Shown: positions 1,297 through 40,042 of the stretch, piece by piece | Numbering within the stretch: the first letter of the stretch is position 1 | Layout of the letters: the number at the start of each line of letters is the position of its first letter | Source: Ascidiella aspersa | Taxonomy: Eukaryota | NCBI GenBank assembly: GCA_963924565.1 | Contig: OZ004607.1 | Location: 33,232,001 to 33,296,000 of the forward strand | Length of the DNA: 64,000 nucleotides | Direction: 5' to 3' | Translations under genes and position numbers: made by a program | The notes under the pieces: generated by a model | Seen by the model: the letters and a program-made list of their open reading frames with translations, nothing else | The model's database searches: none | Told to the model about the DNA's origin: nothing

Positions 1297-3520
1297 CTAA
1301 AGAAAAAAACACATCTAAGATTTATAACTATTTTTTGCGTGGTATTTGTGGCGTGTTACCGAGTAAAAACATTTCGCCTATTAAAAAAATGGCCGCGTTT
1401 GTCAGACAACAAAGCGAGCGCCGACACAACATGGCAACGACTTGTTTACGAAAAAAAAATGCGCGTCCGCCGATTATTGGCGATTAAGAACAAAAGCGCG
1501 CCGATGTTTACCGTAAATATGCTCTATACAGCGGCCTGAAAGCCGGGGTGCTCTTATCAGCGCAAAGCCCGTTTATTCCTCAAACTGCCGGGCGATTGTT
1601 GATTTTCAAATCACCCGGTTTCTTCTCTTAGCAGGCCTACCAAGTCGGTACAACACACAGCCTATATACTGCGCGTTAGAAATACCAAGCAAAGGGTCAT
1701 TTCTGGCCGCAGCCGTCGCCTTAAGGACTGCCTACTTGGCCGTTGAGTTTTCTTTGCAAAGCCGGGCACTTTTGTTTGGTTTACACTCCGGGATTAAAAA
1801 GACAAGGAGAGGATTTTTGTTGAGTGCCTAACGCCCTGTGTCGGTCTGCGCAGAAAAAAACGCCTCTTTACGAGTTTCGGATGCTATTTAGCGAGTTTTT
1901 TTAGCGTTTGTTTAGAAAATTTCCGCCCAACCTCTATATGACAGTTTAGTTTCGAAAAGGTGAGTGCAGACAGAATTCTGGACTCCCGGTAGAATCGGTT
2001 TTTGTCTCTAGAGATTGGTTGTAGTTGAAATTCTGAAGACGTGTGTACTGTATTTCAGAATAGCAATAAGACCTGCTTTACAGCAATTTCGATGCAGCGG
2101 CGGTTAATCTGAATAGCTTTTTATTTACATAGCCTGTGTTATTCTGTCTAACTTATGAAATTGGCCAATTCGATGTTTTTAAACAAAATACTTTAGGCCT
2201 TCAGCGGCACCTTATTATGTGACTCTTTTTAGCTTTGGTAACCGATAAAAAAAATGTAAAAGACGGTTTCTTGGAAGTACTGACTTCTAAATATCTGCTC
2301 TAGTTAAACAGTTAAAAAAATTAGGCATGTTTTAAGAAACCGTTTGGTAATTTTGAAAGGCTGCTACGGTCCCTTAAACACCTTACAAACATTGCCTATA
2401 AGAGCGTAGACATTGTAAGCGCAACTAATAGTTGTTATTACGCAGTTGTAAAACTAAACACGAAAAGAATGTAGCTTACATGGCAGCCATATTTGTCGAT
2501 TTAAAAACTGTAAATCGTCAATCGTTTGTAAAAGATCATTTAACGCAGTAAAAACATCCGTGCTTTATCAGGTCAAAGTACGATTAAGGTTACACAAATA
2601 AACGAAAAAAGACACGAGCTAGCCTCGGTGTTTTATGTTGTTTTTAAAACCCATTCGTCTTACAGAGATGTTAAGAAATGAAAACGGCATTTTCCACAAA
2701 GCGAACCAAGGTTCGAAACTATTACAGCTAAACTATAGTTTGTAGCAAGCATAAGTCTCAGCGTGTGTAAGCATAAGTCTCAGCAAAGTTATTTGCGAAA
2801 TAACTTAAAGTAATTGACATCAAAAAGTCAAACTATTAAAATTATTCATTTTCCATTCCAATTAATACTTCGCACATATAGCAAACACCATAAACGGAAC
2901 ATCAAACTATTCATTTACGCCGAAAATTGAAGTGTATAACCTATGTTTTCCAAAAAAAAACATTTTTATCAAAACTCGTCATTTAGGCTTCAAACCGAGT
3001 CAAGTGATTAATTTTGCTTATTGAAGACATAACTGAAGTCATTTAAAGGCAGTGACCGGGGTGCATTGAAGTCAAATAATTGACTTAAGTCATTTGAACA
3101 ATTTTACGAAAATAAAATGCGTGAAAGACCAATAGCATCTCAAACAATTCAAACAGACCGAACTAAGAGGAAATGTTTGTTTTCAGACAGCTACAATTAC
3201 GTACGAAACAACCATTTTAATTGAAACACTTAAGTAATTTATAGGGTTAAATCCAAGTCAAGCCGAGTAAGTTTGCCCAAAATACTTATTAAGGTTATTT
3301 AAAAACAGTGACGAAAGTGCATTCAAGTCAAATGATTGACTTAAGTCATTAGAACACTGGTTTGTATTTTTTACGAAAACAAATTGGCAAAGATTAATAA
3401 CATCTCAAACAGACCAACATAAGAGGAAATGTTTGTTTTTATACAGCTACAATTAAGTTGTTCGATCAAATATGCCCTAAAATCTGCCCAAACCCTGTCT
3501 CAAAACTGGTCGTTTCCCAG

Positions 3521-3685
3521 AAATCTCGACTCTCGGACGAAATCTCGCAGTTTAAGGTCGAACGTGATCGCATCAAGCAACTTAAGGAGAGCTGCAAGAA
3601 ACACGAGGCAAAGCATAAGGAACTGAGGGATTCCTACGAGCAGCTGAAGAGCCACTGTCACCAACAGAAACAACTCATTCTGCAG
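3521..3685 (+). CDS. CNTLN: Centlein-like exon (KSRLSDEISQF...QQKQLILQ)
   Basis: tttcccag| ... cag|gtttgg, phase 0-0. Confidence 0.8.
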
Positions 3686-6600
3686 GTTTGGACGTGACTT
3701 TGAGAGAAAAGATGAAATGTATTACTCGATAAAACTGTGCAACAGGGGACGTGGCGTTGTTTTGCACAATGTGCGCAAAAATGTACAAAAACTGTGCGCA
3801 CATTTTTGCTATTTTTTTTAGAATGTGCGCACATTTAAAACAGCATTTAAAAACGTGCGCACATTTTTGAGTTAGGAGTTCACCCATTAACTATCTCAAA
3901 ATGTGCGCACATTCTGCTAAAAAAAGTGCGCACATTTTTAAAGTCGTATTAAAGTGTGCGCACATTTTTGCCTGCACATTTTTCCGCATATTGTGCAAAA
4001 AATGCTAGCATTCCCATCTCAAACTGTGGGTTACGGAAGTTTGACAAACAGGGTTCCTTAGAGAAATATATATTTTTTCATTTTTCAATGAGCGAATGTT
4101 TGCCTTGGGCACGGAAATTTTTAGGCTGACTTCTAAGTGAATCACAAAGTTTATATAAAATAATTAAAACTAATGTCACATTGCTTTTCCTTTTTTAGGT
4201 TTATATATAGGTAATACTAAAGTTGAGTGTGAAGCAAATTTTACTGCGCAAATTTTCCGATGCGCGCTTGTGCATTTATAGGAAACAATAATAATAAGCC
4301 GTAAAGTTACAAGCTTATAGTAACGAACTACTAAACAAATGGAATATTTAATTTATCTTTTTACTAATAATAGCATTTGTTGTAGATTTAAAACTAAAAA
4401 CCCTCAAAAAAAAAGAAAAATCAAAAGTAACCATATATTTAGTGTAAGTTATAACAAAAATTGCATTTCTATTTAAAATTTATATTCATCGAAACTCAGA
4501 TAAAATAGTGATGTTATCATATACTTGTTGAGTGATGGTTGGCCTGCCCTACAGGGTCTCCACCGGTAGACGTTACATTCAGGTTAGAATGAGGTGTGTG
4601 TGGTGCCTTAAGACAAGCCGTTGTTTGTATATTGGCAGCTGCAAGAACTTCACAAGAGCACTCAGAAAGTCCTTACCGAACAACAAGAAGCTAGCAAGAA
4701 TGGCACTACTGGTCTCCAGTCTATGTACAACGAAATTGCCAGGTAAGGGTGGTTTTCCGTTGTTTACTCCACTGTTTTTACGGCAGATAAATGGATACAT
4801 TGCGCCAAAATAGTTGTTTTATTCAAGCTTTATTGAACTTGGGTATACTTTGCACGGATCTATAATGTAGCTTGATAAATAATCAATTGCAAAGCCAAAA
4901 AGGTCGAGTACATTGACATCACCTTGATTAAGACTTTTCGATACAATCTTAGTATCATCTTTCAGTTAATTTTAATAGGCTTGTATTAAACCTTTTTTTC
5001 TCCTACTTGTTAAGTATATATAAGATTTCAGGATAGGGTAGAATATTGTAGGCATTGAAATGTAGAACTTTTTTACCTTTACCAAAGCACTAGATTTTTA
5101 AATTACTGCGATATGCGAATTTACCAAATCGAAAGCGATCAGCTACATTCATGCAATCATGCTATTGTGCCATTTTTACCCTCCGTTAGTTGATATGTTA
5201 AATGTGACGACTAAAACGCCCCGTGACAATTTCTTTTACGAATATGGCACCGCATTTTGGTTGCGAAAGTCGAATAATTCCAACATTATTAAAAATACCG
5301 TTAGGAAAAATAATTAAAAATTAATCAAGTTCCTTTGAAGAAACGGTGAAAAATTATAGATTCTGGCTTCACACGAATAAAGTAAAAAAGATTACCCTGT
5401 CCTGTTGTTACATTTAGCGTCGAAATAAGATCACATTAAATATTGTTTTTGAATTCTCTTGAATATTCGATGAATTTATTTTATATCCAACTTAAGTTTC
5501 GTGTTTCAATGTGCCTTTAAAAAAACGAATAAAAATTTGTTTTATTTGTATTGATTGTGACATTTTTACTGTTGTGTTTTCGAATTATATTAAAACAACC
5601 CCAAGCGGTCTAATTTTAGATCTTTAAAATTATATTATTTTTCTTTAAAATGTCTTTGAATTTTGTTCGTAAAAATGTGTGCCAACCCTGTGTTACACTC
5701 AGTCGCGAAATGAGATTACACTACAAAAGAAAAAAATTTCACAGGGAATACCAACAAGTAAAACAAGAGAACTCTGACTTGAAACAGCGACTTCTAGAAC
5801 AAGAAGAAGCGATTCACTCGACTGAAAAGGAGCTGAGAAAATCAATAGAAATGGCTTCAAGACGGGAACGGGTAAATACATTTCAAGTGGCGAAGCCAGT
5901 GGTTCTCAACCGGGGTGCCGCGGCGCCCTGGTGTACCATTTTTAATGCTCAAGGATGCCGATAGGTATTTGACATTTTTTAAGAATCTGATTTTGGCTCT
6001 TGATACAACTATTTGTCTATGTTTAGAGACCATTATATCAAATAAAATTTGAATTGTGTTGTTGTATAGTTCCATTTATAGTGACATTTCAGTAAAATAC
6101 TCGAGAATTCCAGTCGTGGTTTCGAAAATCTGTTTATTATTTTTGAGGGGTTCCGTGAGCCATATAAGTTTGAGAATCACTGGGCTAAGCTGCGAAACTC
6201 TGATTTATAGCTAAAATATGATATGATTTGCAACAAGTTTGGTTTGGGTGACCGCAAGTGTTTCATTTAAATACCAAAAAGTTGCAAGTCCAAAATTTGG
6301 GAAACCGCTGGAGAAATTTGACACCTTTAAAAAAACAAAACACCTTTAAAAAACACTGAACAGGGTCATACAAATTTTGAACGTTTTTCGAAAACTTAAT
6401 CTTACTCTGACCAGATGAAGCACGGTTGTGCGAAAGCTCGTCAGCTTAAAAATATAATTTGTTAACAGTGTCACTTGTTTTCAGTTTGAAATAAGGCAAA
6501 TACGGCCATCAACCAAGATTAGTGGTTAAGTTGTAAAAAATATTTAAAAGTTGCTAAAGTGTGCAACTCTAGCAAAAAACAAAATATCGTTCGCAATAGG

Positions 6601-9600
6601 TATGTCCGATACTTGGCATTTTATTGCGATACCGATACCCGATATTTTGGACAAGCGCATCACGATCCGATACCAACGACGTCATAACCATGCTCCAATA
6701 TTCTGGATAGATAAATTCATAGGACTGAAAAGCAGTTTTTATCGGTTAATTAGGCCTAAATTTGTTGAGCAATTGTTTTTTGATAAATTGAACTGTTTTG
6801 AGGTAGAATCGTAAATTTGATCGCAAATCTTTGCTGAAATTTTCACTCTCAACAATATGTATCGGATTGACACCAATACTGCCTTAGTATCGGACGAGTA
6901 TCGATACTACCACTTGGCATTGGGTATCGGCTTCGAATCGATATTTACGGACATCCCTAATTCACAACAGAGACGTGTACATTTTGAACGTTGTCGCAAC
7001 GTAATCCAATGTTAACCAGCCGCCAGTAAAATATTTATTGCATATAAATAATACTTGATAATAAATTGCAAAGCCAAAAAGGTCGAGTAGATCGGCAGCA
7101 TCTTGTTTAATACGTTGCGATACGAACTTGTATCATCTTCAGTTAATGTCATCAATGTCATTAGTCATTAACTGAAGATGATACAAGTTCGTATCGAAAC
7201 GTCTTAATCAAGATGCTGTCGATCTACTCGACCTTTTTGGCTTTGCAATTTATTACCAAGCTATACATTATAGATCCGTGCATAGTGTAACCAACTAAAT
7301 AATACTTGTTTTCCAATATTTCACGATTCAATACGATTTTAACCAAACGTTTTAAGATAAGTTCATCGGTCGCGTATAGCTGTAAACCAGGAGTCGTAAG
7401 TTCGACTTTTACTCAACACCCAAGTGTTCATATTGCTTTAATCGAAAACAAAACGCATTTACACTGAAAATAATCCAGCGGGTCGCGGAATTAATTAGGC
7501 TCATTTGAAGCTGTATTTTAGTTTTCTGTTGACAGTAAAAAGCTTACAATCCGCATCCTCGAAATGTTTTTTCTATTAATTTCCTTGTTTTTTGTCAGAT
7601 TTACGACTACAGTGACCTCGAGGATCAGCTTGCATCGCAGCAAAAGGAAATCGAGCGACTGAGGAGTAAAATTAAGGACAATTCACGGAGGTGAGACATC
7701 GTTCTATAATCCAGGGGTCGCCAAACTTTTGAATGAAGCTCCTATAATACAGTGTTTCCAAACGTTTTTTACCGGCGAACCAAAAAATAAAGCGTACGTT
7801 TAACAGTGACGCTTTGGCGACCCAATTATCTCCACTGAACGTTTTCAAGCTTAAAATCAACAAAGAAGAAATAAGACAGTAGCCTTAATAAAGTCAATTT
7901 TATAAAAATCTAAAGAAACTTAACCATATAAAACTTCTTTAATTGGCAATCCAACCAAATTAAACAGCAAAACATATTCGCTGGATATAAATTTAAACAC
8001 ATACTCACAATGTCTGTGGACTCTAAAATGGAGGTTAATAAAAACTGTTTCCGAAAAGGGTTTAAGTTAATAAGGTGGTGCCATAGTAGTTCGTAACTGA
8101 CCCAGAAACCTCAATAATGCTGTCCCCTACTCTGAGCACAATTAGAAAGGTAATATCAAATCAGTTAGACCGCTTAACTTAAATATACCCCGCACAATGA
8201 TGCCATTCGCATTACTATTCATGAGTAATTCGATACGACGTTGTGTCAACCGCTTTGCCGGGGCATGTAATTTGGCTTAGTGCGTCGTTAACAAAAGGAT
8301 TCTGCGTGGGCCTAAGCTGTAAGTCCGGCCGGGCTGTTGGGGTTCGATGTTGGCCTTGTGTTTAATTTGGGGCCTTATTTGGGTCTGAATTGCCATCACC
8401 CTGGCATATGCGCTGTATTTTAACTTTGCTTTTTGTTTATTTTAACGATATCAAAATAATAATTCTTCGTTGATTGTTTACTTTATAAAAATATATGGCC
8501 TCACCTCTGCCGGTAATTAACTACATGACGTTTAACGGAGGCAAATGTTCGTGAAACCTTTCTGGCATAATATCACAGTCAGTCATTTTATTAGATGTAA
8601 AGAAAAATGTATTTCGCTCAAAAGACATCTTAAGTTTTAAGAAAAACCGTCGCCTTTAATCGATACTCCCGTTCACGTAGCTCTCCATGGGCAAACATGG
8701 CTGATTGATATCTGCAGTGAATTAAACTTTCAGACCTAAGTTTGACTTTTACAGGTTTTTGGAGAAAATAGAAGGCCTGAAAATACTTTTTTTTTTCCAG
8801 TTATTTCTAAGCTGGTTGTTGAAAGCATAACGATACCGGGATGTATTGTTTTCCAGAATATGCCTATTTAAATACTTTTTCTCCTATTCAGACGTTCCGA
8901 TTCACCTTACGGACAAGACCAGACCTTTTCGCCAATCGTGGAGCGAGGTGTACAACAAAACGTAAGTATTACCATCTTAAAACGTCAATCTTTGTAAATG
9001 GCCGTATTTGTCTAATTCTAAATAGAGGAATCAGGTGGCACGATGTAAAGACAAATTATATTGAATTCCCGGCTTTCGCACAACCATGCTTCATCAGGTC
9101 AAAGTATGGATAGTGGATACGTATGGATACCAGGATGGATACTTTGACCTGATGAAGCATGGTTGCGCGAAAGCTTGTCGAGAATTCAATACAATTTGTC
9201 TTTACATACTGCGATTCAACATCACCGTTGTGAAAAAATTTACCTTTTTTTACCACTGGTGTACTTCACAAAATAAAAAGCTAAAATGGTCTAGTTTTTG
9301 CAGCCGTAATACTAGTATTTGACCGTTACACCTGGATTAAGTTATTTTTAGCCAATATTCTTCATAAAATATATCAACCTTTATTCTGCGATCTTAAAAT
9401 CATCAGGCCAATTAAACTCACAGAAATGCCTTGAAACCAGAAAATATCGTAAAACAATAAAATCGTAAGAATCGAAGCAAACATTCCGGTTTACCTAAAC
9501 ACGAACAAGATATTTTCTAAATACACACCATGCTTTGTTTTAATTAAAAAAAAAAATATATATATATATAGTAAAATTCTTTTTTACTCCCCGCTTTTAA

Positions 9601-12600
9601 AGCGAGCTACAGAGCTCACAGAATGCGTCTCTCGTAAACGTCAATCTCTTGCGTTTGCTAATATCTGTTTCCCCTTCAAGGCTGTAAGATCAAGGTCTTA
9701 CTCCCCGGTTCGCCAGAGCAAGCAGCTCGCCACCACACAAAAGCGACTCAAGGCAACAGAAACTAAACTGGAGGAAACCAAAAGACTACTCGACCTCAAG
9801 GTTTGCATCGGTCTTTTTGCTTTTTTAAGTATTGCTAAAGTCAGTGTTTCGCCACCTTTTTCGGCTTGCGGCACCCTACAGAAATTGTAAATAGTTCGCA
9901 GCACCGTTGTTCGCATTTTTGCTGGGTGGTTAACTGTAACGTTACAATAAACTAGTTTGGAACAGCACATTAACTGTGCAACAAGGTTGAGAAAAAACTT
10001 TTCAATTATTGACACTTTGGTCGTACAGAATTTGAAATATCTCTCGGCCCCTGGCACCGTAGAGTGAGAGTGCCGTGGCACCCCGGTTGAGTAGAGTGAC
10101 CGTAGAGTGAGAGTGCCGTGGCACCCCGGTTGAGAACCACTTGCTTAGATTGTACTTATGCAAACGTTGCTCGCTTTTTCCAAAGATATTTAGGCACAAA
10201 TATTTTAAGCTTTTTTTCGCTTGAATCATGAATCAAATGACTTGGCTACAAAGAAATATTTTAAGAGATAAAATTGATAGGCTAAGATATTTAAGCACAA
10301 ATATTTTAAGCTTTTTCTCGCTTTATTTATGAGCGAGATGACTGGACCACGATGAAATATTCTGAGAAAATAATGGTAATGAAATAGCAGAAAAGCCTTT
10401 ACATTATTTGCTCCTGGCCATCTTGCCGTTACAAGCCTTCAATTTTTTTTCATAAAATTATTTGGCAACCCTGTTCAATCAATTCCACTTAATACAAATA
10501 CCGTACAAAGCTTTTGCATGGAAAATAACATGCGACTAGTATTTTTCTGACTGTATCCATCTTCAAACAGTGCTGTAGCGATCATTTTTCAATTAAAAAC
10601 ACTGTTTGTGCAGCGCGACGAGGTCAATGAAATTCAGCAAGCTCACAACCGAAGACTGGAACGTCTTAGATCGCTACAAAGCGACTACAAGTAAGTGCTC
10701 AAAATATTCACTTAAAAAGTTGGACGAATTTTGCCAAAAATAAAAGGAGTGATTGTTGGGAGCCACAGTTCAGTAACAACCATTCTGGGTGTTACTACAA
10801 TTTTATGATTTTTACGGTGAATTTTTTTTACTTTTTATTTATCTTTAAATGTTTCTGACTAGTACTTATACTGTTGCGTTTGTTATTCAGACATACTGAC
10901 GATGCCCTTTTTGGTGAAATATAAATATATATATAATTTATAAATATATATATCTTTAAAAAAGTGTCTTACCTAAACTACTTAGCTTTGCTAGATTATT
11001 TTGCTATTAACCTCCAACCATTTAGGTTATTTAAACCCTGATTTGGCTCGCAGTAATACGTTTCAATTTTACTATAGGATCCTTAAATCTTCCTCTTCGG
11101 ACAAACACCACCGCTCCTCCTCCCCTCGCAAGAAGAGGAGCAACTTCGCGCCTCCGTCCTCCCGATTGGATCGCAGGGATCTGAGGCAGGAGACGTCAGA
11201 GACGGTTTGGAACGACCTCGTTTACTACAAGCAACAAAACAAGAACCTCGCACAAGACAAGTGATTGCTAGATTTAACAACCGTTATTTACTTTAGACTA
11301 AGGGTACCGTGTAATGCGAAGATGAGCAAACTCTTTGCTACGCCAACTTAAAAAACGGTACACTGAATTTACGGCTATCATGGAGCATACAACTAAAAGA
11401 AAAAATTATATTTAAGCTGCGGCCCATAGTTTGGCGATCACTGGTTTACAACTTACAAATCGCTGTCCTTACCTTTACAATGTAACTCACGTGCTTGTAT
11501 GTCGGATTTTTAACAAAGCAACAATTGTAAATGCAAACCATTTAGTTTTTTATTTTCCAGGCGTCCTTATTTTTAGGTGATTAGTAGCCCCAGCTATACA
11601 TTTTAAAGTAACTAGGGGTAAAAATGGAATACCGCAATGACTCTACTCTGGATTCACTAAACACTTTAAATCCTTTTTAAAATTATAGTGTTAAATTATT
11701 TATCCAATTTTGATTAAGCGGTAGCTCTGCCCCCGGATAGGCAACAATACCGAAGTTAAACAGCTTTGTAGTATAATGGTTGTAGGTTTAAGTAAGACGT
11801 AGTAAGAATATTAAAGCCCATACAGAAGTAGGAAGCATTTTGTAAACGTTTAAAATAAATCTTAAGATAATGGCTGGAGGTTGTAGTTAGACGTAAAATG
11901 AATGTCAATACAGAAGTGGCCAACATTTTGTGAACATTAGAATAAATCTTTAGGTAATGGCTGGAGGTTGTAGTAGGACGTGTAAAGAATATCATCAAAG
12001 CACATACAGAAGTTGGTATCATTTTGAACGTTTCGAATATCTCGTTATCGATTTCAACATAGTGATAAGGCACAGATTCGATAAACTTTAAAATTAATTA
12101 CTCCTCCCACAACAAACGCTCCCTTTTTTCTCCAGGTGGTCTTTGGAGGAGGAGCTTGACAACCTCCGTGTCCAGGCGACGGTTGATCGCGCCACCATTC
12201 AGGACCTCAACATGTGCCTCAAGAACGAGAAGAACGAACTGATGGCCAGACTCCGGTCTTCTGCAAGAGCTGACGGTAAGAGGGCAAAGAAAATTATATT
12301 TTAGTTAACCCCTTGGAATAAAAAAAATTGTTTCTTTGAATTTTTCTATTGAGGCCTTTCGACATGTGTCGGTGTTATATTTTGTGTAAATACACAGACT
12401 CATTAAGTGTAACTCTGCTGTTAAACAACGCTGCATAAAAAATGCCCTTTTTAGGCTGTGGAACCTAAAAGTATTGTATACCCCGAACCCAAACAACCCT
12501 TTACAATGGCTTTAGGATTTTGTTTACTTGTTACGAAACCACTTGTGCAATTATGGTTTAAATTAAAACACGACTGAGTTGAAGTGGAATCAAAGTTGCG

Positions 12601-15600
12601 TCGTTTTTTTTAAATGCCTGTTTTATAAAACAGGAGTTTCGTGGGCTAGTGATTGTACAACCGCGTATCGAAACGTCTTTATTTAGATGATGACGTACAT
12701 TTTCTACAGCTTTTTTGCTTGGATACTCATTTTCAAGGAGTTTCATCATTTGAATATTTTGATGACGTGTAAACGGTTTATTATAATCCGATCCTATACC
12801 AATGACGTCATTAGTATACTTGAACAAACAAAATATATTAATTTAAAACGCTCATATATAGTTTTTCAAGGCAAGGTGGTCAAAAAAAAAACCTTTCAAG
12901 GTGAAAAATACTGCATTGCATTGCATGGCTGAAATAACTTACTTATATAAATGGCTGAATAACTTACTTATATAAAGTTGGTGTCGGGTCGGCAATACCA
13001 TCCTACTATCGAACGAGTACAGATAATAGTACCATTCGGCATCGGGTATCGGTCTCGATCCGATGTTATCGGACATACCTACTAGTATATTACAAATGAG
13101 TCTAAAACCTTATAAACTGTCACAGTATACAGTTAAGATAAATGGTTGGAAGTTGTAGTAAGACGTATAATGAGAATATCAAAGCCCATACAATAGTAAG
13201 TGGCATTCTGGACGTTTGAAATATCTCTTTATTCATTTTTAACATAACTATAAAAATATATTAGAAAAATTCAAAATGCTAATTACTCCTACACGGGCTT
13301 GATATTCTTTTTTCCAAATTGCTTATAAGTTAGTTAAATATTACTTTTTTTACTTAAGAGCGGCGAAGCAGCACGCCCAAGAAGGGGAAGTCCCTCTCTC
13401 CGAGGCCGACCCGTCGTGTAGTAAAGAACCTGGAGCGGAGGTTGGAAAACGCTGCGGAAGACAATCGGCTACTCAAGAAGGACCGGGATCGAATGCAGGA
13501 GGACAACAGGTGCTTGTTGGCAAAAAATATGCAGTTGGTAACCTGAACAGCTGAAGCTTTTATATGAGGGGAGTATGTCGAGAAACAACAATTGTACCAT
13601 TGGCTGCTGCCTCATGTTTGTATATCCAAGGTCAATTAAAGGGGATCAACAGTCCGTGCTTTCAGCAAATGAAACGCACATATACACAATGTGAAACCTG
13701 TGAAAGTCTACCTTTCAAGTATGTTTGTTTAAGCAAGACAATACTAAAAAAATCTGGTCTGCGTTAAACACATTCTAAAAACGACCGACCTTTAAGAATT
13801 TGAAAAACCGTCATCTAATTTGAGTTAGAGTTAAACCTCTTAGCTTTTATTTAAACGTCTTCGCTTGTATACTCACAGAACCCTTAAAAGCGACATCAAA
13901 TCGCTCAAACGCGAGATCGCCGACACCAGGCATTCGGGCACCACCTTGCGGCAGCAGAACTCAGACCTGCGCGTCAAGCTGCAGTCGCAAGATGGCGATA
14001 TGGCGCGACTGAGCGGCGAGGCTTCGGCTTTAAAAGCTGAAGTGCAAGGACTGAGAACGGATAATGCCGGAGTTCGCTCGGAAAACGCTTCGCTCAGGTA
14101 ATTCACATCAACGTGTGTATCTGGGTTAAAGCTGTGTCCGAAATGTTTCAAATCAGGGGTCACAAAACTACGGCCCGCAGTATATTTCCTTAAGAAGATG
14201 AAGTCCAGTTAAACTCTTGTCGGTAATCCTAACATGAATCCGGCCCTTTATGAAAAAAAATTCTACATCCTGTTCCACAAATTCGGTTAGTATGCAATGT
14301 CTTCCGTTGTACATTTCAAGCATACTATAATATTAGTACACCCAAGAGCAATCACAGACCACCCGAATCTGTCGATAAACGATGCACGCAGGGCAGTCTA
14401 GAAAAACAACTAGCCTGCAGTAAGATTCGAACTCACGACCTCCGATCATTGCGGGACCGTCGCTCTACCAACTGAGCTATACCCTACAGCAGTGGTCGGC
14501 AAACTTTTTTTCTCGCGGCCCAAAGCACTCTTTTCAGATATGTTGACGGCCCACTACGTAAAACCACTGCAAACACAGTGGCGGATTTGAGATATTTGTT
14601 ATTAAGGTGAAGTATTACACGGCGCATTAATGCCTAAAACATTCGCATGCCATATTGTAAAACATACTATAAAACGAAAAATTTTTGCGTTTACATAAAT
14701 TAAAGTTGGCAAAACATATACTTCGACAGCTCTCAGGACCACATTTTGCACGTGGGTCTGAAACACGCTGAGCTAATATAAAAAATATTAGCCATATCAA
14801 TGTTTAAAATAGAGTGCAATGAACAATGAATGTACGGCTAGCATGCGGCCCACAACCACATGGCATCACTAAACTCAAAAAAGTAACTCGCGGCCCACTA
14901 AAAATGGCTGTGCGGCCCACAGTTTGCCGACCACTGCGCTACAGGTTCAGAGAGGAGCAAGTCGAGAACAACCATACGCCAATGCTTGCTACATTCTGTC
15001 AGTACAAGCGACTTCACATTGAAGGGGGTCATTATAGTATACCATATATTATAATATTATTGTGTTATTTTTACCTGGTCTTTTCTCTTCAGGTCAGAGA
15101 ATAGCGACTTGCGTCAGGACTTGAGCGACCTCAAACGGGAGATTGGTGAGTTGCAGGACGAGTTACGTCACGCCTCTAGACCAGTGACGTCACCAGAAAG
15201 TCGACAGAGCTTGAAAGCGCACCGTAAGATCAAGGGAGCTGTTAGCGCAGCCAAGAAGGTACGTCATTCATTGTTTGAGCTTTTTTCATGCGTCACTGGT
15301 TTACGCCAGGTGTCGGTAACCTATAGCTCGTAAGCCATATGGCTCTTTTGGTGAAGGAATCTAGTTCGCAGATAAATCTAAGCTATCTAGCATTATGTGA
15401 ATAAAACTGCACTCGGCCACGGCCCTTTCCAAACTGCACTTTACATTTTTAAAACAAGACTATGGTAGCAATTTTTTCACCGCTTCGCGCGAATTCTATT
15501 TGTCTGTTGGTGGTGATTAGTCCGTTTGACGGAAATCTCTTTTTGTTCAAAAGGTCATGTTCGTATCATGGCACTCTTAAATCAAAGTTTTATAGGATTG

Positions 15601-18600
15601 TTTAGGCCCATAGTTCACGTTTTCTGTTTTGTTTTACTCAGATAAGCAAACTTTGTCTTATAGTAAAGAATGAGTATTGATGTTGTGCTTATTACATCCG
15701 ATTTGTGGGGTTTTTAGACGCAACCTAACAATTCCAGGGGGTACCCACTAAAACTTGATAAAAAAGTGATTTTTGAACAACCCTACTGCTACACTGTAAA
15801 ACAAATTTCGAACCACGCTCTATATACAAACAAACACACACTCGCATTTCCACCCCTGCATTTAGCACCAGAAGTTCCTAAACAAGTCAATCGGTGAAAT
15901 GCGCGACGCGTTCGGGGATCATTTCGACGCCAGGGACCTGGATCCTGTTTCCACGACGACCATGAGCGGGGAAGAAGAGGAAGATGAGGACACGACCGCA
16001 ACCTTTGCAGAGAATGAGATTGGAAGATCGGATGCGAGCAGCCTCGGCCAGAGCATCGTGAGAGCATCCAGGAGAGGCAAGGGATTCCTCAGAGGTGCGT
16101 CTGTTCTGTTTTGTTAGGCCAGTCGAAGCAACATGTCGGTGTGTTTCTAGGCTCATCTGGTTTGTTTGAAGCATTCTTGCTAACTGCACATTTTCCAAAG
16201 CTGTAGTTAAAGATTTGAACGCAATATCTACTGCAGGGACCAGGAACCTATGTCTCGCGAGCCATTTATGCCTCTTTTGATAGTGTAATCTTGCTCGCAG
16301 ATAAATCTAAGTTATTATTTCTTATCATAATTTGAATAAAACTCCACGCGGCTATGACCCTTTCAAACTGCATTTTTTGCAAACAAGTAAGGCCCTGTTC
16401 GTACCATGACACTACGTAATCTGCAAACTTATAGCCAAAGTGTTTTTTCGTTCTTACTCTTCAACTAGATGTTGAAAAATATAATACGGCTTATGGAAAT
16501 ACAACCAAAAATATTTGGCTTTTATGGCTCCCTAAGCTCCCATGGTTCCCGACCATTGATCTACTAAGTTAAGTAACTGTTAATAACAGGACGACCTTCT
16601 TAACCTATCGATGGCGACCTAAAGTTGAATTCTGTTCGCCGGCTGCAATCATTTTCCATGGTTAGATTTACTAAGTTTGGGGCAGATTTCTTCGAAATGT
16701 AAGAAAATTGTTGGAGAAATACGAAGAGGTGGCTCATATTAATTGAATTCAAATTTAGTTGGGATATTCGTTCTTATTTTGTTTGCTTACAAACATTTCA
16801 GAGTAGATAATTAGGTCACCAAAGCTTCGCTGTTACGTTTGCGCTTACAGTAATTTGGTTGTCACACAAAGGTTGATAAAAACTGTATTAAGTGCACAAT
16901 TGTCACAAATCTCTGACAAATTTTAAATGTCTTTGAATTGATATTCGTGTTGAATAGACAAAAAACTATATTTTTTTTAATCGATATATTTTATGTGCAG
17001 CTTAAACAGGGTTGAGTAGGTGCCGCAGTGAAACTTTTCTAATTTCACAGTGTATTTTGCTTAGGGTAAGGCTACGTTTTTGGGCAATTCCTTCATGTTT
17101 TTTTTTTGTAAAACAAAAAATTTTTTTTCTCAGGATGACAAACGTCTTGAGTTTTAATCTAATCGCGTTGTCAGCCCCAGTGTTCTGCACTCAAAACCTG
17201 TGTTCTGATTAATAGGGTCTATTCTTGTAAAAAATAGTTTCAAACCTGTTTGTACTCAGAAAAGACAAATATTTCGCTGTTCCATTACTAGCTTTTTCGC
17301 TGTTTTCAGTAATGTCAGCTCAAACTAAAATTGTCTACAACACACATCATCTGTGCACACTGTAGAAAAATAGTTCGTGATGTATTGCACTCGAATCGTA
17401 TCTAAAAAATTGTATCAAAAACCACCAAAAAGTGCGAAAATTACGATTTTAAATAGTCTGAAATATCTTAGCACCCGTGAGCACGACAAACGACACCCCG
17501 GTCGGAAACCACTCTACTAAAACAAAGTCTTTTCAAGCACTAACGGTTTGTGTTTTTTTTAGACGAAGACGCAGATGAAGATGAAACGATGGTGGACGCC
17601 CCTTTACACACAGGTGCGAGAAAGTTAACAAATGTTTAAAGCAGGGCAGTGGAGTCGATTTATAATAATTCGGGTCCGACTCTTGTCGATAAAAAATGGT
17701 CTAGTCCAGCGTTCGACTTTAGCTGGATTAACCAGAGGTCTCAATTATCAAAGTGTGTTTAATTTAAGTTGTGTCATTGCTAAAGGATAAACGCTTAAAT
17801 CAGATGACATAGGAAACCTATGTCGTTTTGTATTGTTTTTGCATGATGGGCGACACAAAATTGCTATAGAATTTTGTAGTTTTTTGTGGTGAATTTTGTA
17901 AAAGCATGGTGTTTAGACTGGTTCCTATATGTCTTGGTTAAATTTTTAGGAAAGAAAATTGTTTTATTTGCTGGTTTAATATGAAATTTCTGAAAAAATC
18001 GTCTAAACTTTCTTTTAATAACCTACTTGTTGACATACGTGTAAACAGCTAATGTATAGTTACCTTCTACAAAAATAAACCAACTGTATGTTAATCAACT
18101 GTCTAACCTTTACTGTTTTTTGTTACAGCTGGTGGGTCGCGCAAAAACGGGAAAGCCCCTGTCCGAAGGGTGATGTCACGTCAGGGCCAGGGGGCGATGA
18201 CGTCATTGAAACATCGTCTCGCTTCTCTGCAAACGCAGTGCCAGTCGTTGAGAGCGGCCAAGCAGAACGGCTTGAAAAGGGTAAGTGTTGTTTGCAAAAT
18301 TAACGTAGCTATTATAGTTAAAGTTGTGAAACGTCGTTTTTTTAAATCTGGTAATGGAAAATTCGGTAGTGACTAAATTGCCTTTCTTTAGCATGACGTC
18401 CAAGAAATGTCAAAGCGCATACAAAAGTAGTTGATATTGTCTGAAAAATGGTCTAGGCACTTTCCGCTAAAGAATTTCTTTTTGATTTATGAAATATTAA
18501 ATTGCCAATAGGCTTTTCGTGCGAAGATATAGGTGATTTTTCGTTTTGAACGGGTTTCAAACAGAAGTCATTTATACCACAATAACTTGTGCAACTGAAT

Positions 18601-21600
18601 TTGAATTAATACAAAACAACAATGTTATATAAAACGAGCGATCCGAGCATACATAATAATAATAATAATAATAATAATAAACTTATTTGTATATGTAAGA
18701 AACTGAGATAGAAGACTAACAAGCTATAGTACGAAGGCTAGAGCTTCTTATTGCTTGAGGTACAAACACAAAGTTAAGGACAAACCAAGATCAAAACCAC
18801 ATGAGCTAGAAAAAACATAAAACACTTCGAAAAACTCACTGCGTTTAATAATAACTGTCTCGTTGGTCTTTTTACAGTTGAACGACGAAAAAGAAAAGAC
18901 AGAAGAACTTCAAAATGAGCTGGTCTCTTGCCAGAACAAACTCAAGTCCTCCAAACAGGTATTTAGTGCCCAACTTAGTACGACTCTTTAAATAAATCTT
19001 CAAAGCTTGTATCACTAAGCCCTGTGCTGTACTTGCTACAACATTTTAAAGAAAAAAAATCTGCGATATACCTGCCTATATGCATTACATTATTTAATTA
19101 GGATGACTTATTTTCTTGTATTTTTTGTGCATCATACGTAAAATAGGGTTTCACGACGACACTAAGGAAATAAAGGACAGTTGTGCTTTTGCTAAAAAAT
19201 ATCTGTTTAGAAAAATAAATACTAGGTTCTGACATTTCTGAAATAGCTGAGACATTTTCGAATGTAAGAAATCTCTCGCAGACTATAAAAGGTAAAAGAG
19301 AGATTCTACTTTCGGATGAAAAAACAGGTATAAAAGTATAAAATCAGTTGTTAAAAACTCAATTTATCTTTCCCTTATTTCCCCAGCGATTGAGTCGAGA
19401 TTAGTTAATCATAAGAAACCTAAGTAATTGGCTGTAGCAAATTCAATCGTTTTGGAGTTTTTTACAGCCTATTTGAACTGCATATTAAAACAACACCATT
19501 GGCTTCATTAAAACAACATGCCTACCCTTATTTTCCCGGCTGCACCAAATTCATTTACTATTTAGTCTGTCCTAACTGCATATTAAACCAACACCATTGG
19601 ATTCATTAAACATGCAGATTAAGCTACATACACCTAATCATACTCAATTAATCCTACCCTTATTTTCCCGGCTTTAGCAAATCCAGCGATTAAGTCGAGA
19701 GGCGGAAGTGTCGCTTCGGGAGCGGGATGAGATGCAGAAGGACTTGGAGGAAGCAAGAAGCTCGCATCCGGAGCCGCAGAAGCACTCCGACGCCGACTAC
19801 AAATACATCGACAGCAAACTCAAGGTAAGGAGGACCTCTAGTTGCTGGCTGAGGATGTTGATAATATTGATCAGTTGCCATACAGGATTTACTTTACATC
19901 GGGCACTTTTGTCGCCTACTGTTCTACTAGGCTTGATAATGAATTGCGAAGCCACAAATGTCAAGTAGAACATTATCCTGATTAAGGCGTTTCTACACAA
20001 ACTTGTATAATCTTTAGTTAGTCTGGTTATCATTCTACATTGCAGATACGTGCATGGTGTGACCTTGATTTGTTAGTAAATAAAAATGTTAAACGCCCTT
20101 TAAATTAGAGTTGTTAATTAATTTTTCACCTTTTCCAAAATATTTAACAACCAGACAACCCTTTTTTCTAAATCTAATACAAGAGTACGTTATTTATCAA
20201 TTCCAATACTCTCCCAAAACAATCCAACGGGTACTTGATTTTGTGGCGAAGAGTACTACTGTTTTGTCTTATCTGATTTAAGCTTGAAAAAACACAAACT
20301 AAATTTTACTATTCATTTACCTTTTTCAGTTATTATATTAAGTACAGAAAATACCAGACTATCTCTGTCAGACCAACAAAATTTTATTACCTTTTAAGAT
20401 TTCCAATTGGTTTCTGTTGTAAATCGCAATTGCAAAGCTAATTGAGAATACAATACCACCGTGCAATAGCCGACCAATCCCAATATGGTCCGTACCTTGG
20501 GTAACATCGCCTGCTTGCTTTTCCGCAGATGTTTTTTGAGTGACCTTTTGAACAAGTGTCACAAATATTGTTTAACTTTTGGTAACAAAATACAAATTGT
20601 TTGGCGGGACACGTGTTTCGTGTGCAACTCTACATATACTTCTTGTCATTATTCAAAATCCATTAAAGGTGTAGTTTGCTTGTGTCTGATTTTTTAGTTA
20701 CAAAACATTAATAATGTCTATAGATGGCGAACAGCGAAAGCGTGAGGTTGAACGAACAGGTTAAGGATCTGAAACGAGAAATCGAAGCGAAAAGCGAACA
20801 AGCTGCTGTTGATAAGGAACGAATAAACAGGTAAGCCATGAACGAAATTGATTGATCTTGTATGTACGAACAGGATGCAATGGTGCTATGGTTGTTCTCC
20901 ACTTTCTCCCTTCTGAGCCTGGGTGGCTCAGTTGGTAGAGCGACGGTCCCGGTATGACCGAGGGTAGTGAGTTCGAATCTCACTGCATGCTAGTTGTTTT
21001 TCTAGCCTGGCCTTGCTTGCATTACAATCCTTTCCGAATGCAACTTGTGCAGGTAATTCATATACGTTTTTGTAGTTTACATTAGAGCTGGCATGTCTTT
21101 TCTTTTGGGTAAAACATCTTTTAACTGTTTCCATACAGTTACACTGATGGGAGTATCGCAACATCGTTTCTTTCCTTATTTATTTATTCGTGTAATATGC
21201 ATAAAATAAACGCGTGGGTCCAGTTGACTCATATAGTTTTTAACGCATGTAACTTTGGCTGAAAGCTATTGTTTGTAATTAGCAGGCCAATTATGTTTTT
21301 CTCTAAACGTCAAATTTAGGATGCCCTCGTTTTGTATGGTTTTCGTAAACAGTATGTTTTTTGATGACGTCACATATTTTCATTTTCGTAGGCTTGAGCG
21401 TGACGTCACTGCGAAACGTCAGCTAATCGAGGAGATGCGAGCAAAGGTTCGCGAGAACGAACAACGAGATAAAGCTGACCGACAAGGACAGGTGTGTGGT
21501 AACTACAGTGGTTCAATTATGTTTTTTTACAGTATTCATGGACGTCGATACTTTGGTCTCTAGAGTCCTTCTTGCTCTAACTTCAATTTTCTTGACTAAG

Positions 21601-36200: not shown

Positions 36201-38725
36201 CCTCGGCATTACTGCGATGCCCTAATAACTAAATTTGGTGTTTAGAAAGAAAAAAACCCGAATCCTTTTTAAGCAGTTTTGCTTAGGGTACTTATAACAA
36301 AATTTCCCGAGGCATATTGGCACTCTCCGCAGCCCCAGGCCTATTTAAAGCTTCTCCTTGCCTAGAGTCTGTTAACAGCTCGTTTGTGACATGAATGTCA
36401 AGATCAACAAAGAACGGTAAAAGCGAAACAAGTCACAACTTTAATACATTAGTTAACATCAAATGGAGATACACTTTATTTGTTTCATTGGTTTATGGGG
36501 GTGCCATTCAATGCTCGTATATATTTAACAGCCCACTAAAAACAATATATTTTTCCAGAGTTGACGCCAAAAGTTACGTCATAACGTGACGTCGCAATTA
36601 AAGTTACATATAAACGTGACGCCATAAAAAAGTAACCTTAATAACGGCAAACAGTAGACTATTTCTATTTTGTTAAAGTTTAAGGTCATCGGAGAGAAGT
36701 TTCTCTCAATACAAAAGCTTTTAGAAATATAGGTTATCGATTCGCGAAAAGCGAAAAAAACGCCTTTATATTGTTTAAGTTGCCAAACCTTTTAATTTCG
36801 AGGATACGATGAGACGAACGACGACTTTGGAATAAAACTTAAATAAAATGGACTGAGCCACACTAAAAGGAAATTTTAATTCGCGTTGACTGCGAATGTT
36901 TTTGCATTTACGTATAGTTAAAATAGGCAAAGTATTGGGTGTTGCATAGACCGTGCTCCCCAATAGCCAATCGTGCAAAACCATAATTAAACAAGGGCAT
37001 ACTGCCATTAACTACCGAGCACCAAATTAACGTAACCATAAATATCCGGCGGTTTAAATCATACTAAACGATATTTAACCCGATCGATCAGCAGTCTAAA
37101 GAAATCAGATAAACATTAATTAGAAAAAAAATATAGCCAGTGATTGAAATATCCTGTACAATATTGGTAACACTCAGTTGTTCATAATAAAGTGCGTTGT
37201 TTCTCGAAGTAGAATTACGTAACTTTAATAGCCAAGACAGGAAGAATAAGTCATTTATCAATCAATCTTTTCAGCGCTATACTTGTATATAACAAGCGAA
37301 AATAGCCTATCAGTGCTAAAAAAAGAAAAATTGCGTTTTGTTTACAAACATAATTACATGCACATTAATTATATTTTTGGTAAGTTATTATGTTTTCGTC
37401 ATCGAATAGGTGATTACATATTTGTAAATACAAGGGTTACATAACATTAAATCAGATCACTTAAATTGGTGCACTCAACGCGAGATGTTAGAAATCTGGA
37501 AAATATTGGCGAATTGTATCCTTTAATGTACAAGGTATGTCATTTAACAATGTAAATAAGCCGCAAGTGCCTCGGCTATGTTACGCTTTTTCGCGATGCT
37601 ATCTTCTGTGCGAACTTCCGGTATATGCCCAATCAATTGTTGCCGATACACAAAAGTAAATGGTTGTTAGTTGAGAGCTTTTCCTATTGTGTGTTTTCTT
37701 GTGCTTTTTTCGTCATCTTATTATTTTTTTAAATGTCAAGGTAACAACAGTAGCCAATTTTTTTAGCATATAAAATATTTGACTTAAATTACTAGCATTG
37801 CTGGACTAAATACGGGGCACATTATAACATCGAGATAAAGCAATAAAGGCGAAAACTTAACAACATTTATGTTGTTGGGATTTTCGCGTTAAACTAATAT
37901 GTTTAAAGTTTTAAATAACATTTTTAGTTTAATTTGAAAAAAAGACTGTAACTATCATAGCTATGAATCACCGAACAAGCCTTTTTGGATGAACATAGGC
38001 TACCATCGGGTCTTTCCGCCGGGTTTCAAATCCAAAGTTTTAATAAAATATTTGGACAGATTTTGTTTATTTCGCAGGTCGGCTTAGATTAGGCACAAGT
38101 TACGCTGCTGTATAAGCGTGACTCATATTTACACGGCAAAAAAAACGTAATTTATACCGAAACAACGAACGTGATGTCTCAAAATACGTACGTTGCGGGT
38201 TTAAATAAATGCGTTTAAGAGCTTTAAAATTCGTGGATATGTAGATATTGGTGTAACTTTGAAATTATGTAAATCAAGTTAGACAACATGCACTAATGGG
38301 CTACTTTTCAGGAGAAATCAAACCGTAGTCCTCCCCAACATTGTTTTTCAATTTTACTTTGTAAATGTCAATTTTGGAGCAAATGGTTTGAGGTTGTAGC
38401 AAGAAGTAGTAAAAATATCAAAGCCTATACAGAAGTAGTTAGCAATTTGACCGTTTCGAATATCTCTTTTTAACGCGAATAAGAGTTATACGCGATTTTT
38501 TTCGAATATACGCAATGTTCTTTTTAGATTAAATGCAATTTAGCTGCACATTTGCGCAATGTAACTTTGTGACGTCATCCCTAAAACTCTTCATGCGCCT
38601 TAAAATTCTGGATTGGCCCCTGGTACTAAATAACCAAATCAGGCGCTGATCTCCTCATAAAACTGCATTTTCTCGTCAAATAAATTTTCGATTATTTTGG
38701 AATGTGTTGGAATTCATTTGAATCG

Positions 38726-38790: not shown

Positions 38791-40042
38791 AGCATACAAC
38801 ATCTTAAACGATAGGCTATACACTCGCTATTAATCCACTACTTAAATTCAAATACAATTTGTCTTTATACAGTGCCACCTGATTCCTCTACTTAAATTAT
38901 GTTTCTTTTTGTGGTTGTATATTACTCAGAATAACTCCGGTGTGCTAATGCATCTCAGGGCATATACGCATTTCGACACTGAAGCATGCAACAGTAAATA
39001 AACACGACATAAAACAGGCTGACGTTTTGTTTAATCAAGATTGCGTGTTTTTTTTAACGTTTAGGTGCAGTTCAGTTTAACAAAGCAAGCGGCTGGCTCC
39101 CTTTTTCACCATGCTATTTACGTTTTGCACCTTGTTTTGCACCCCTGGGCCTTCAGTTTACCAGCACTCGCTTCCAAAGCATTGACATTTTCCTTCATTG
39201 GCATGCGTGACTCATCAGGCAAAATGCGTTGGCTCAGAGAAGCCGCCGCGAAATTAATCTGGACAACTCGCCACCACAAACTTATCGTGTTTTGCCGATA
39301 AGGCATTCCCAAGTCTTATGCTAAAGATCACGGCCCTCGCACTCAGATGAATCACCAAGGCCGCAAATATTTTGCTGTTCCAACATCACGCCGACCAATA
39401 GGCTCGCGCAAAGGAACACCTGTTTTTAAAAGATGTACTTCCTGTAATGTTCTTTCTCGGTTCAATTTATGCAATATACAGGCATTGAACGCATGGGTCC
39501 TTAATTTTTTTTAACATGTACCCCTAATACATTGCTGATTTATGTGAGCAAGATTCGGCAAGGATTTTTAGAGGTGACATCCTAAATTGACGTCATTCAA
39601 GTAGACCTAAGAAAACCACTACTTTACGTCAAACTTATACCCCAAGGGGTCATAAACCCCAACTTAAGAACATAATTCAGTGGTAACCATATTTCTTTAC
39701 GAGGAAGAATAAAAATATCAAAAGCCATTGCTGCCAGCTTTGTATATTACTTTGTTTGTATTTCTCTTTATCTGTAATGTATCTGCTTTTAAAACAGGAC
39801 AAACGACAGTTATAAGTCTAAACACAAAAGAGGCGCCGTAAAAACCGCTCATCACATAACCCTGGGTAACTGAGCCTTAAAAAGCAGCACTCTTCTGATG
39901 CAAAAGCAATGTCATTTCTACACAGGACATTTTTCGAAAATATCATTCATCATTATCAAGGTGTTGTCACCTTGTTGAATCAATCCCTAATGACATTTGA
40001 ATTTATTATCGTTTGTAAATGTTTTTTGGCGATCATCCCTGA

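Follow-up and report, generated by a model that had tools for sequence, protein, structure and literature searches.

The unit at 8988–9217 is very probably a non-coding remnant of a Penelope-like element (PLE): two pLTR stubs bearing hammerhead motifs lie head to head, likely as the outcome of one insertion in which both nicked target strands acted as primers. It lies in a window of 64,000 nucleotides from the Ascidiella aspersa genome, to which all positions refer; the genome searched for related copies amounts to 309 Mb in 75 contigs. The family identity, the geometry of the arms, the tail on one arm, the unique spacer and the near-identical 7-bp repeats at the flanks are observed directly at the locus. 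The repeat family of the unit is called family 2, and that of a neighbouring inverted pair at 7055–7295 is called family 1. The parts and their relatives in the window are as follows.

8988–9217: whole unit of about 230 bases, two pLTR 3′ ends head to head
8981–8987: left copy (AACGTCA) of a probable target-site duplication, matching 9218–9224 at 6 of 7 positions
9218–9224: right copy (AACATCA) of the probable target-site duplication, paired with 8981–8987
8988–9107, minus strand: inverted arm, pLTR end of the putatively Neptune-type PLE, with tail; 86% identity to a young genomic copy
8988–9020, minus strand: PLE tail of about 33 nt, on the minus arm only, delimited from the bimodal 3′ ends of the family
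9068–9102, minus strand: broken minimal hammerhead, core and stem II retained, 4-nt deletion
9108–9138: junction spacer of 31 nt between the arms, with four TGGATA
9139–9217, plus strand: direct arm, tailless pLTR end; 91% identity to the family over 9139–9212
9144–9181, plus strand: motif of a minimal type I hammerhead, with cleavage predicted after U at 9176
6400–6519, plus strand: single 120-nt copy, tail included, from an older sister subfamily; its hammerhead motif is at 6407–6444
38846–38899, plus strand: short tailless 3′ fragment of family 2 (+9 to +61), without ribozyme
7055–7295: family-1 inverted pair, tail on the plus arm
7045–7054 and 7296–7305: 10-bp duplication (TAAATAATAC) flanking the family-1 pair

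Layout of the locus

Mapped on the young copy, the minus arm covers −37 to +87 relative to the cleavage site. The plus arm also begins at −37 and extends to about +50, having lost 5 nt close to its end. A preliminary description made from the window had recognised the inverted arms and the TGGATA spacer; the pair and its spacer stand, and the arm limits are redrawn as listed above. The tail, the target-site duplication and an extra nucleotide between A9 and G10.1 of the hammerhead had been overlooked. The further flank it placed at about 38845–38900 is indeed the 3′ fragment of family 2. The spacer has a single match in the 309-Mb genome with up to two mismatches allowed. It appears to reiterate, with errors, the arm tips GTAT-GG-ATAC, which would give it a templated origin.

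The local duplication is 7 bp with one mismatch in the assembly, the usual length being 10–13 bp. In a contig of run X2 across the left junction, position 8984 is A and the two 7-mers are identical. Since contigs of runs X2 and X4 cross both flank junctions, the unit is no assembly artefact. No empty site was present among the joints listed from the run contigs.

Exon-like frames that encode coiled coil and belong to a multi-exon host gene extend over 3400–20000 on the plus strand. One frame ends near 5872 and the next starts near 9680, and the unit is probably intronic in this gene. A motif of the host gene near 11200 recalls centlein; a homologue search with the exon there found nothing. Elsewhere in the window, two tRNA-like copies in opposite orientation (14390–14482 and 20917–21013, 89% alike over 88 nt) are probably a tRNA-derived SINE. 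Another dispersed repeat family (11756–12046, 13122–13230, 38363–38469 and 56277–56414) occurs in tandem copies and in one inverted pair of tail-to-tail-like form (56311–56412).

Parent elements and their hammerheads

A 22-mer of the hammerhead motif has 514 exact matches in the genome, and its reversed control has none. The copies of family 2 have a fixed 3′ end and a variable 5′ end, the latter ranging from +22 to beyond −1100, and the 3′ ends are bimodal, at about +44 to +61 and +82 to +87. Longer copies extend 5′ into an ORF, with which the pLTR is colinear in several copies. Because this ORF encodes RT and GIY-YIG, the repeat can be identified as the pLTR of a PLE. In the longest copy found (L103, about 2 kb and 5′-truncated), Pfam reports RVT_1 (E 3e-10) followed by GIY-YIG (E 2.3e-7). 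Homologues of its ORF are RT/GIY-YIG proteins of turtles, shark and sea urchin, and the identity is 46% to turtle proteins with the same linker. This linker, C-x4-C-x2-C before GIY-YIG (CGKSRCELC), does not occur in the family-1 ORF. A Cys linker between RT and EN marks the Neptune and Nematis clades (PMC8557442), and family 2 would be a Neptune-type PLE, the clade being assigned by the linker motif alone. As in EN+ PLEs, an RT with a C-terminal GIY-YIG, a fixed 3′ end with optional tail, a variable 5′ end and inverted pLTRs are all found in family 2. Pfam gave no match for a shorter ORF copy (L038). None of the copies found is full-length, with a 5′ pLTR or start codon, and no pLTR-ORF-pLTR partial tandem was seen among 15 matches to the upstream part of the ORF, in a search that scores best candidates only. 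One copy of the older sister subfamily (L208/L212, G000:C3:17.958 Mb) is contiguous with a GIY-YIG C-terminus, with 52% identity to family 2 over 48 aa.

Judged by its sequence, family 1 represents another PLE, probably a Penelope/Poseidon-type one. Its longer copy (L159) holds the C-terminal part of an RT (thumb region), 36% identical to family 2 over 104 aa, with a GIY-YIG-like motif and no Cys linker. Three homologues of the family-1 ORF carry RVT_1, and Pfam returned no relevant match for two pieces of that ORF. The two families are unrelated as DNA and belong to one element class, so that the earlier view of two unrelated families holds for the DNA and fails for the class. Since family 1 is also a PLE, the shared layout is inherited PLE biology. 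The suggestion of a shared insertion mechanism is thereby borne out, both families being PLE pLTRs, and the independent origin proposed with it applies to two insertion events only, the layout itself being a common PLE property.

The pair at 7055–7295 and another family-1 pair 2.8 Mb away (L281, G000:C1:30436281) have an identical 17-nt central spacer, which occurs in 2 genome copies. Flanks and duplications differ between the two loci, the tail lies on opposite arms, and each locus has its own variants common to both of its arms. Ectopic repair or gene conversion of the hairpin centre is possible. A decayed family-1 copy on the minus strand at 4880–4985 has a core insertion and changes at the GUC site.

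The plus motif at 9144–9181 contains stem I (TTGAC/GTCGA), CUGAUGA, GAA, a 4-bp stem II, an extra A after A9, a palindromic AGCU stem III and U at the cleavage position 9176. Two substitutions leave an A.C mismatch and a U.G pair in stem II, and the descriptor fold is −2.4 kcal/mol, compared with −8.4 kcal/mol for a family-type copy. The CUGAUGA, GAA, AGCU and CUU read by the preliminary description are thus in place, but the copy is not intact as it had stated. The minus copy had rightly been said to lack its cleavage site: U16.1 and the cleavage site are gone with a 4-nt deletion (TTGT), as is a portion of stem I. The motif at 6407–6444, noted earlier as a solo copy, is genuine; it is part of the 120-nt copy of the older subfamily and reads CAGAUGA, a U4-to-A change in the core. 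All features of a minimal type I hammerhead (CUGANGA/GAA/UH core, stems I and II, G10.1-C11.1, an extra nucleotide after A9 and a palindromic stem III) are present in the family type and in the plus copy, the latter with its weakened stem II; the minus copy and the 6407 copy lack part of them. A relaxed descriptor matched three places in the window (6412, 7172 and 9149) and none in each of 100 block shuffles. An Rfam scan of the window matched no hammerhead model at E up to 1.

The difference between CTGAC/GTCAG and TTGAC/GTCGA, offered before as a compensatory change in support of the fold, is real between those two copies. It is not covariation of the family, because among 33 hand-picked aligned copies of both subfamilies only 2 have C-G as the outer stem I pair, and 15 have these positions unpaired (U-A in 15, U-G in 1). 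The usual stem I of the older sister subfamily is CTGAC/GTCAA. The clearest consistent change in the alignment is U-A/U-G (19/12) at the pair next to the outer one. Paired stem cells amount to 89.8%, against 16–52% in slid controls. Two-sided changes occupy only 5 cells, and the number of such pairs was equalled in 73 of 500 shuffles. Between families 1 and 2 the hammerhead stems are wholly different and the palindrome is swapped (ACGU/AGCU). It is core conservation and this comparison between families, not the outer stem I pair, that argue for the predicted fold of family 2.

Position 17 is U in the young subfamily of family 2 (98 of the first 100 listed of 287 matches) and C in the older sister subfamily. 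With U at this position, hammerhead cleavage would be slow. Read ends of the family in RNA run X7, a library of a kind ill-suited to reveal self-cleavage, form no pile-up. A transcript across 8988–9217 is predicted to form a hairpin of −110 kcal/mol (z −14), and since this long hairpin buries the motif, the ribozyme of the unit is probably silent. In the family 2 pLTR, for example at L064:2558–2640, a short frame of some 26 codons begins with the AUG of the ribozyme core and has its stop at the tail start; likewise, the ORF of Poseidon PAc starts inside its own ribozyme.

Head-to-head pairs and 5′ ends in the genome

Three samples of copies were compared. Sample A, anchored on the family 2 ribozyme, was built from 60 regions around the first-listed 22-mer matches, 53 on contig C1 and 7 on C2. 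Three segmental duplicates, together with the match at 6417 inside the window, were passed over, four further duplicates were dropped and the window locus was added, giving 57 loci. Sample B, selected by the 3′ motif of family 2 only, took the first 100 of 503 matches and yielded 96 arms, 92 after deduplication, at 77 loci. Sample C, for family 1, took the first-listed places of 304 matches on C1 and C2, with two duplicates skipped and the window excluded, and comprises 70 arms at 65 loci.

The fraction of inverted pairs, suggested earlier as a check, could be obtained: 29 of 57 loci in sample A are adjacent minus-then-plus, that is head-to-head, pairs, with one tail-to-tail adjacency, and 44 of 77 in sample B are pairs, including 6 long ones entered by hand. 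Sample C has 39 short pairs. The head-to-head layout of 8988–9217 is ordinary for the PLE class. A 10–20-bp repeat encloses the whole unit in 17 of the 29 pairs of sample A; a comparable score was reached by 1% of 300 random position pairs. Overall, 73 of 77 short pairs have a tail on one arm and not on the other (37 of 38 in sample B, 36 of 39 in sample C), and none has it on both. Independent choice predicts about half, from which the observed rule departs with P 1e-10 in sample B and 1e-8 in sample C. In 21 short pairs of one sample the tailless arm exceeds its partner in length, in 10 it falls short of it and in 6 the two are equal; the corresponding counts in the other sample are 23, 11 and 2.

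When both arms span the ribozyme, the strict descriptor is passed by both, one or neither ribozyme in 3, 5 and 2 of 10 pairs in sample B and in 6, 7 and 2 of 15 pairs in sample A. Such mixed counts are as expected from the decay of two initially intact arms, and the intact-plus-broken layout that had been described is not a rule, both ribozymes being intact in 3 of 10 and 6 of 15 pairs.

About half of the family insertions form long hairpins in the RNA of host transcripts and may thereby supply substrates for RNA editing. At L064:2420–2525, 13 of 18 adenines are A>G in many reads of RNA run X7. G occurs at these sites in at most 2 of 33–70 aligned genomic copies per site, and the cluster resembles A-to-I hyper-editing of an inverted pair.

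The 5′ ends of the arms pile up just upstream of stem I. This was measured in samples B and C, both chosen blind to the ribozyme. Of the family 2 arms that reach −33, 25 of 63 end by −44; of the family 1 arms that reach −36, 23 of 39 end by −47, 17 of those at −39 to −37. A constant-hazard null matched the pile-up in 0 of 2000 simulations for each family. Truncation at the ribozyme cut site is rejected, as only 2 of 92 ends in family 2 and 5 of 70 in family 1 fall there (−1 to +3). The AT content of the pile-up stretch is 0.83 in family 2 and 0.58 in family 1. Given this AT-richness, microhomology can contribute to the pile-up of family 2, and so can alignment smear. In family 1 the peak lies at a C/A step, 30 nt below TATAAG.

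The pile-up is most simply read as the place where the RNA itself begins, probably at a transcription start within the pLTR, since a reverse transcriptase blocked by structure would stop on the 3′ side of that structure. Alternatively, exonuclease trimming down to the structure or endonuclease nicking at a nearby ATT may produce it. An origin at a splice acceptor was rejected: family 2 has no AG there, and in family 1 an acceptor-like CAG ends 2–4 nt upstream, yet no exon or leader further upstream is common to the copies. A single short master copy is disfavoured by the mixture of variant types among family-1 arms ending at −39 to −37. G precedes 7 of the 11 family-1 arms that end at −38 (P 0.004), several of which are explicable by the partner arm; this gives a weak hint of a cap-derived extra G, of which no sign was seen by eye in family 2. 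In D. virilis Penelope the start lies further upstream, before an intron ending at helix I (PMC2377424, PMC4209133), so a start at stem I is not universal. All arms of both window pairs (8988–9217 and 7055–7295) end at the pile-up point, which explains why the two families look alike in layout. No published statement of a pile-up at stem I was found in the main-text passages covered by the literature search.

Origin of the pair and comparison with known systems

Priming from both strands of one target could build the unit in the following steps. The element protein would nick the two target strands a few bases apart; one strand would prime cDNA synthesis from the start site that includes the tail, its partner from the one that omits it. 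Synthesis of both cDNAs would end a little upstream of hammerhead stem I, probably at the RNA 5′ end. Several rounds of abortive re-priming on the GTAT/ATAC tips would then precede the joining of the cDNA ends and give the TGGATA spacer. The copies in the arms would then decay neutrally. Re-copied arm ends are present at other pair junctions too. A PLE protein studied in vitro nicks the two target strands and extends each of them, starts reverse transcription at two sites, one at either end of the tail, is predicted to dimerise, and carries out insertion even without ribozyme cleavage (PMC11167929).

The main rival to two-strand priming is fold-back self-priming of the same element, in which the cDNA or antisense RNA folds and is copied into the inverted arm. 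Self-priming by fold-back or on an antisense template has been proposed on the basis of palindromes at inverted junctions (PMC3846280), and at the present locus the junction core GTAT-GG-ATAC is a mini-palindrome and sequence comparison finds variants, relative to the young copy, that both arms share. Tailless arms are also longer about twice as often as shorter. However, fold-back with a fixed order predicts that one arm class is always longer, and both outcomes are common (21 vs 10, 23 vs 11); the 5′ ends of the arms are unrelated, most junctions are non-palindromic, and the rule of exactly one tail per pair is unexplained. We therefore consider fold-back unlikely.

A self-propagating hairpin, MITE-like or retrozyme-like, or a selected switch of one intact and one broken ribozyme is far less probable and is largely refuted for 8988–9217. 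One family-1 spacer does occur at two loci with different flanks, and family reads are present in RNA run X7, but the spacer at 9108–9138 is single-copy, where a MITE-like unit would have many, and arm lengths and junctions vary at nearly every locus. As for a switch, the intact or broken status differs among pairs, the plus motif has lost stem II pairs and the hairpin outcompetes the motif. Retrozymes form tandem arrays with units of 170–400 nt, and no such array lies at 8988–9217. Two separate adjoining insertions in opposite directions, or a later inversion by DNA repair, are equally hard to credit: PLEs are reported to insert near earlier copies (PMC6765202) and the local duplication is short, but neighbouring copies almost always meet head to head, duplications surround the unit as a whole and the two arms are coordinated in their tails.

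Within two-strand priming, we tentatively suggest that the stubs are complete cDNAs of a short RNA that starts 2–5 nt upstream of stem I, primed by a dimer one each at the two ends of the tail. The one-tail rule and the 5′ pile-up predict the coordinated use of two RT start sites and a transcription start beside stem I. If this is true, head-to-head stubs are a genomic record of the transcription start and of coordinated priming from two starts in at least two PLE clades. The unit at 8988–9217 is itself ordinary mobile DNA, and its value lies in the data it provides on the unfinished PLE transposition cycle.

Several parts of this picture have been in print from 2013–2014 onward, namely inverted pLTRs, the one-sided tail and dual hammerheads on opposite strands (PMC3846280, PMC8557442, PMC4209133). 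Cervera and De la Pena (2014, PMC4209133) described min-HHRs in the PLTRs of metazoan PLEs. The family 2 motif is like these in being of type I with a 4–5-bp stem I, an extra nucleotide between 9 and 10.1, G10.1-C11.1 and a loopless palindromic 15.2/16.2, and in occurring mostly as single truncated copies; dual motifs 100–700 bp apart on opposite strands are likewise on record there. Its predicted 4-bp stem II is unlike the 7–8 bp of the Schistosoma min-HHR consensus, and U at position 17 in the young subfamily is a further difference from the min-HHRs of PMC4209133.

Inverted 5′-truncated pLTRs with a tail of 30–40 bp are known from Adineta Pen2a (PMC3846280), from the elements of PMC8557442 and from D. 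virilis Penelope (PMC2377424). These EN+ PLE insertions agree with ours in the head-to-head arrangement, the tail at one end, the duplication around the unit and the joints at microhomology. The insertions in these three accounts are unlike the present unit, both arms of which are stubs of about 80–120 nt without ORF. In the accessible text of the same accounts, tail asymmetry is treated qualitatively and a pile-up at stem I receives no mention. The C-x4-C-x2-C linker before GIY-YIG is like that of Neptune and Nematis (PMC8557442), a likeness that gives the clade by motif alone. The main text on Poseidon PAc of Anolis (Frangieh et al. 2024, PMC11167929) offers no model of how an inverted pair is completed. 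PAc belongs to a different clade, yet like family 2 it has two 3′ end classes that bound the tail, AT-rich targets and few ends at the ribozyme cut site.
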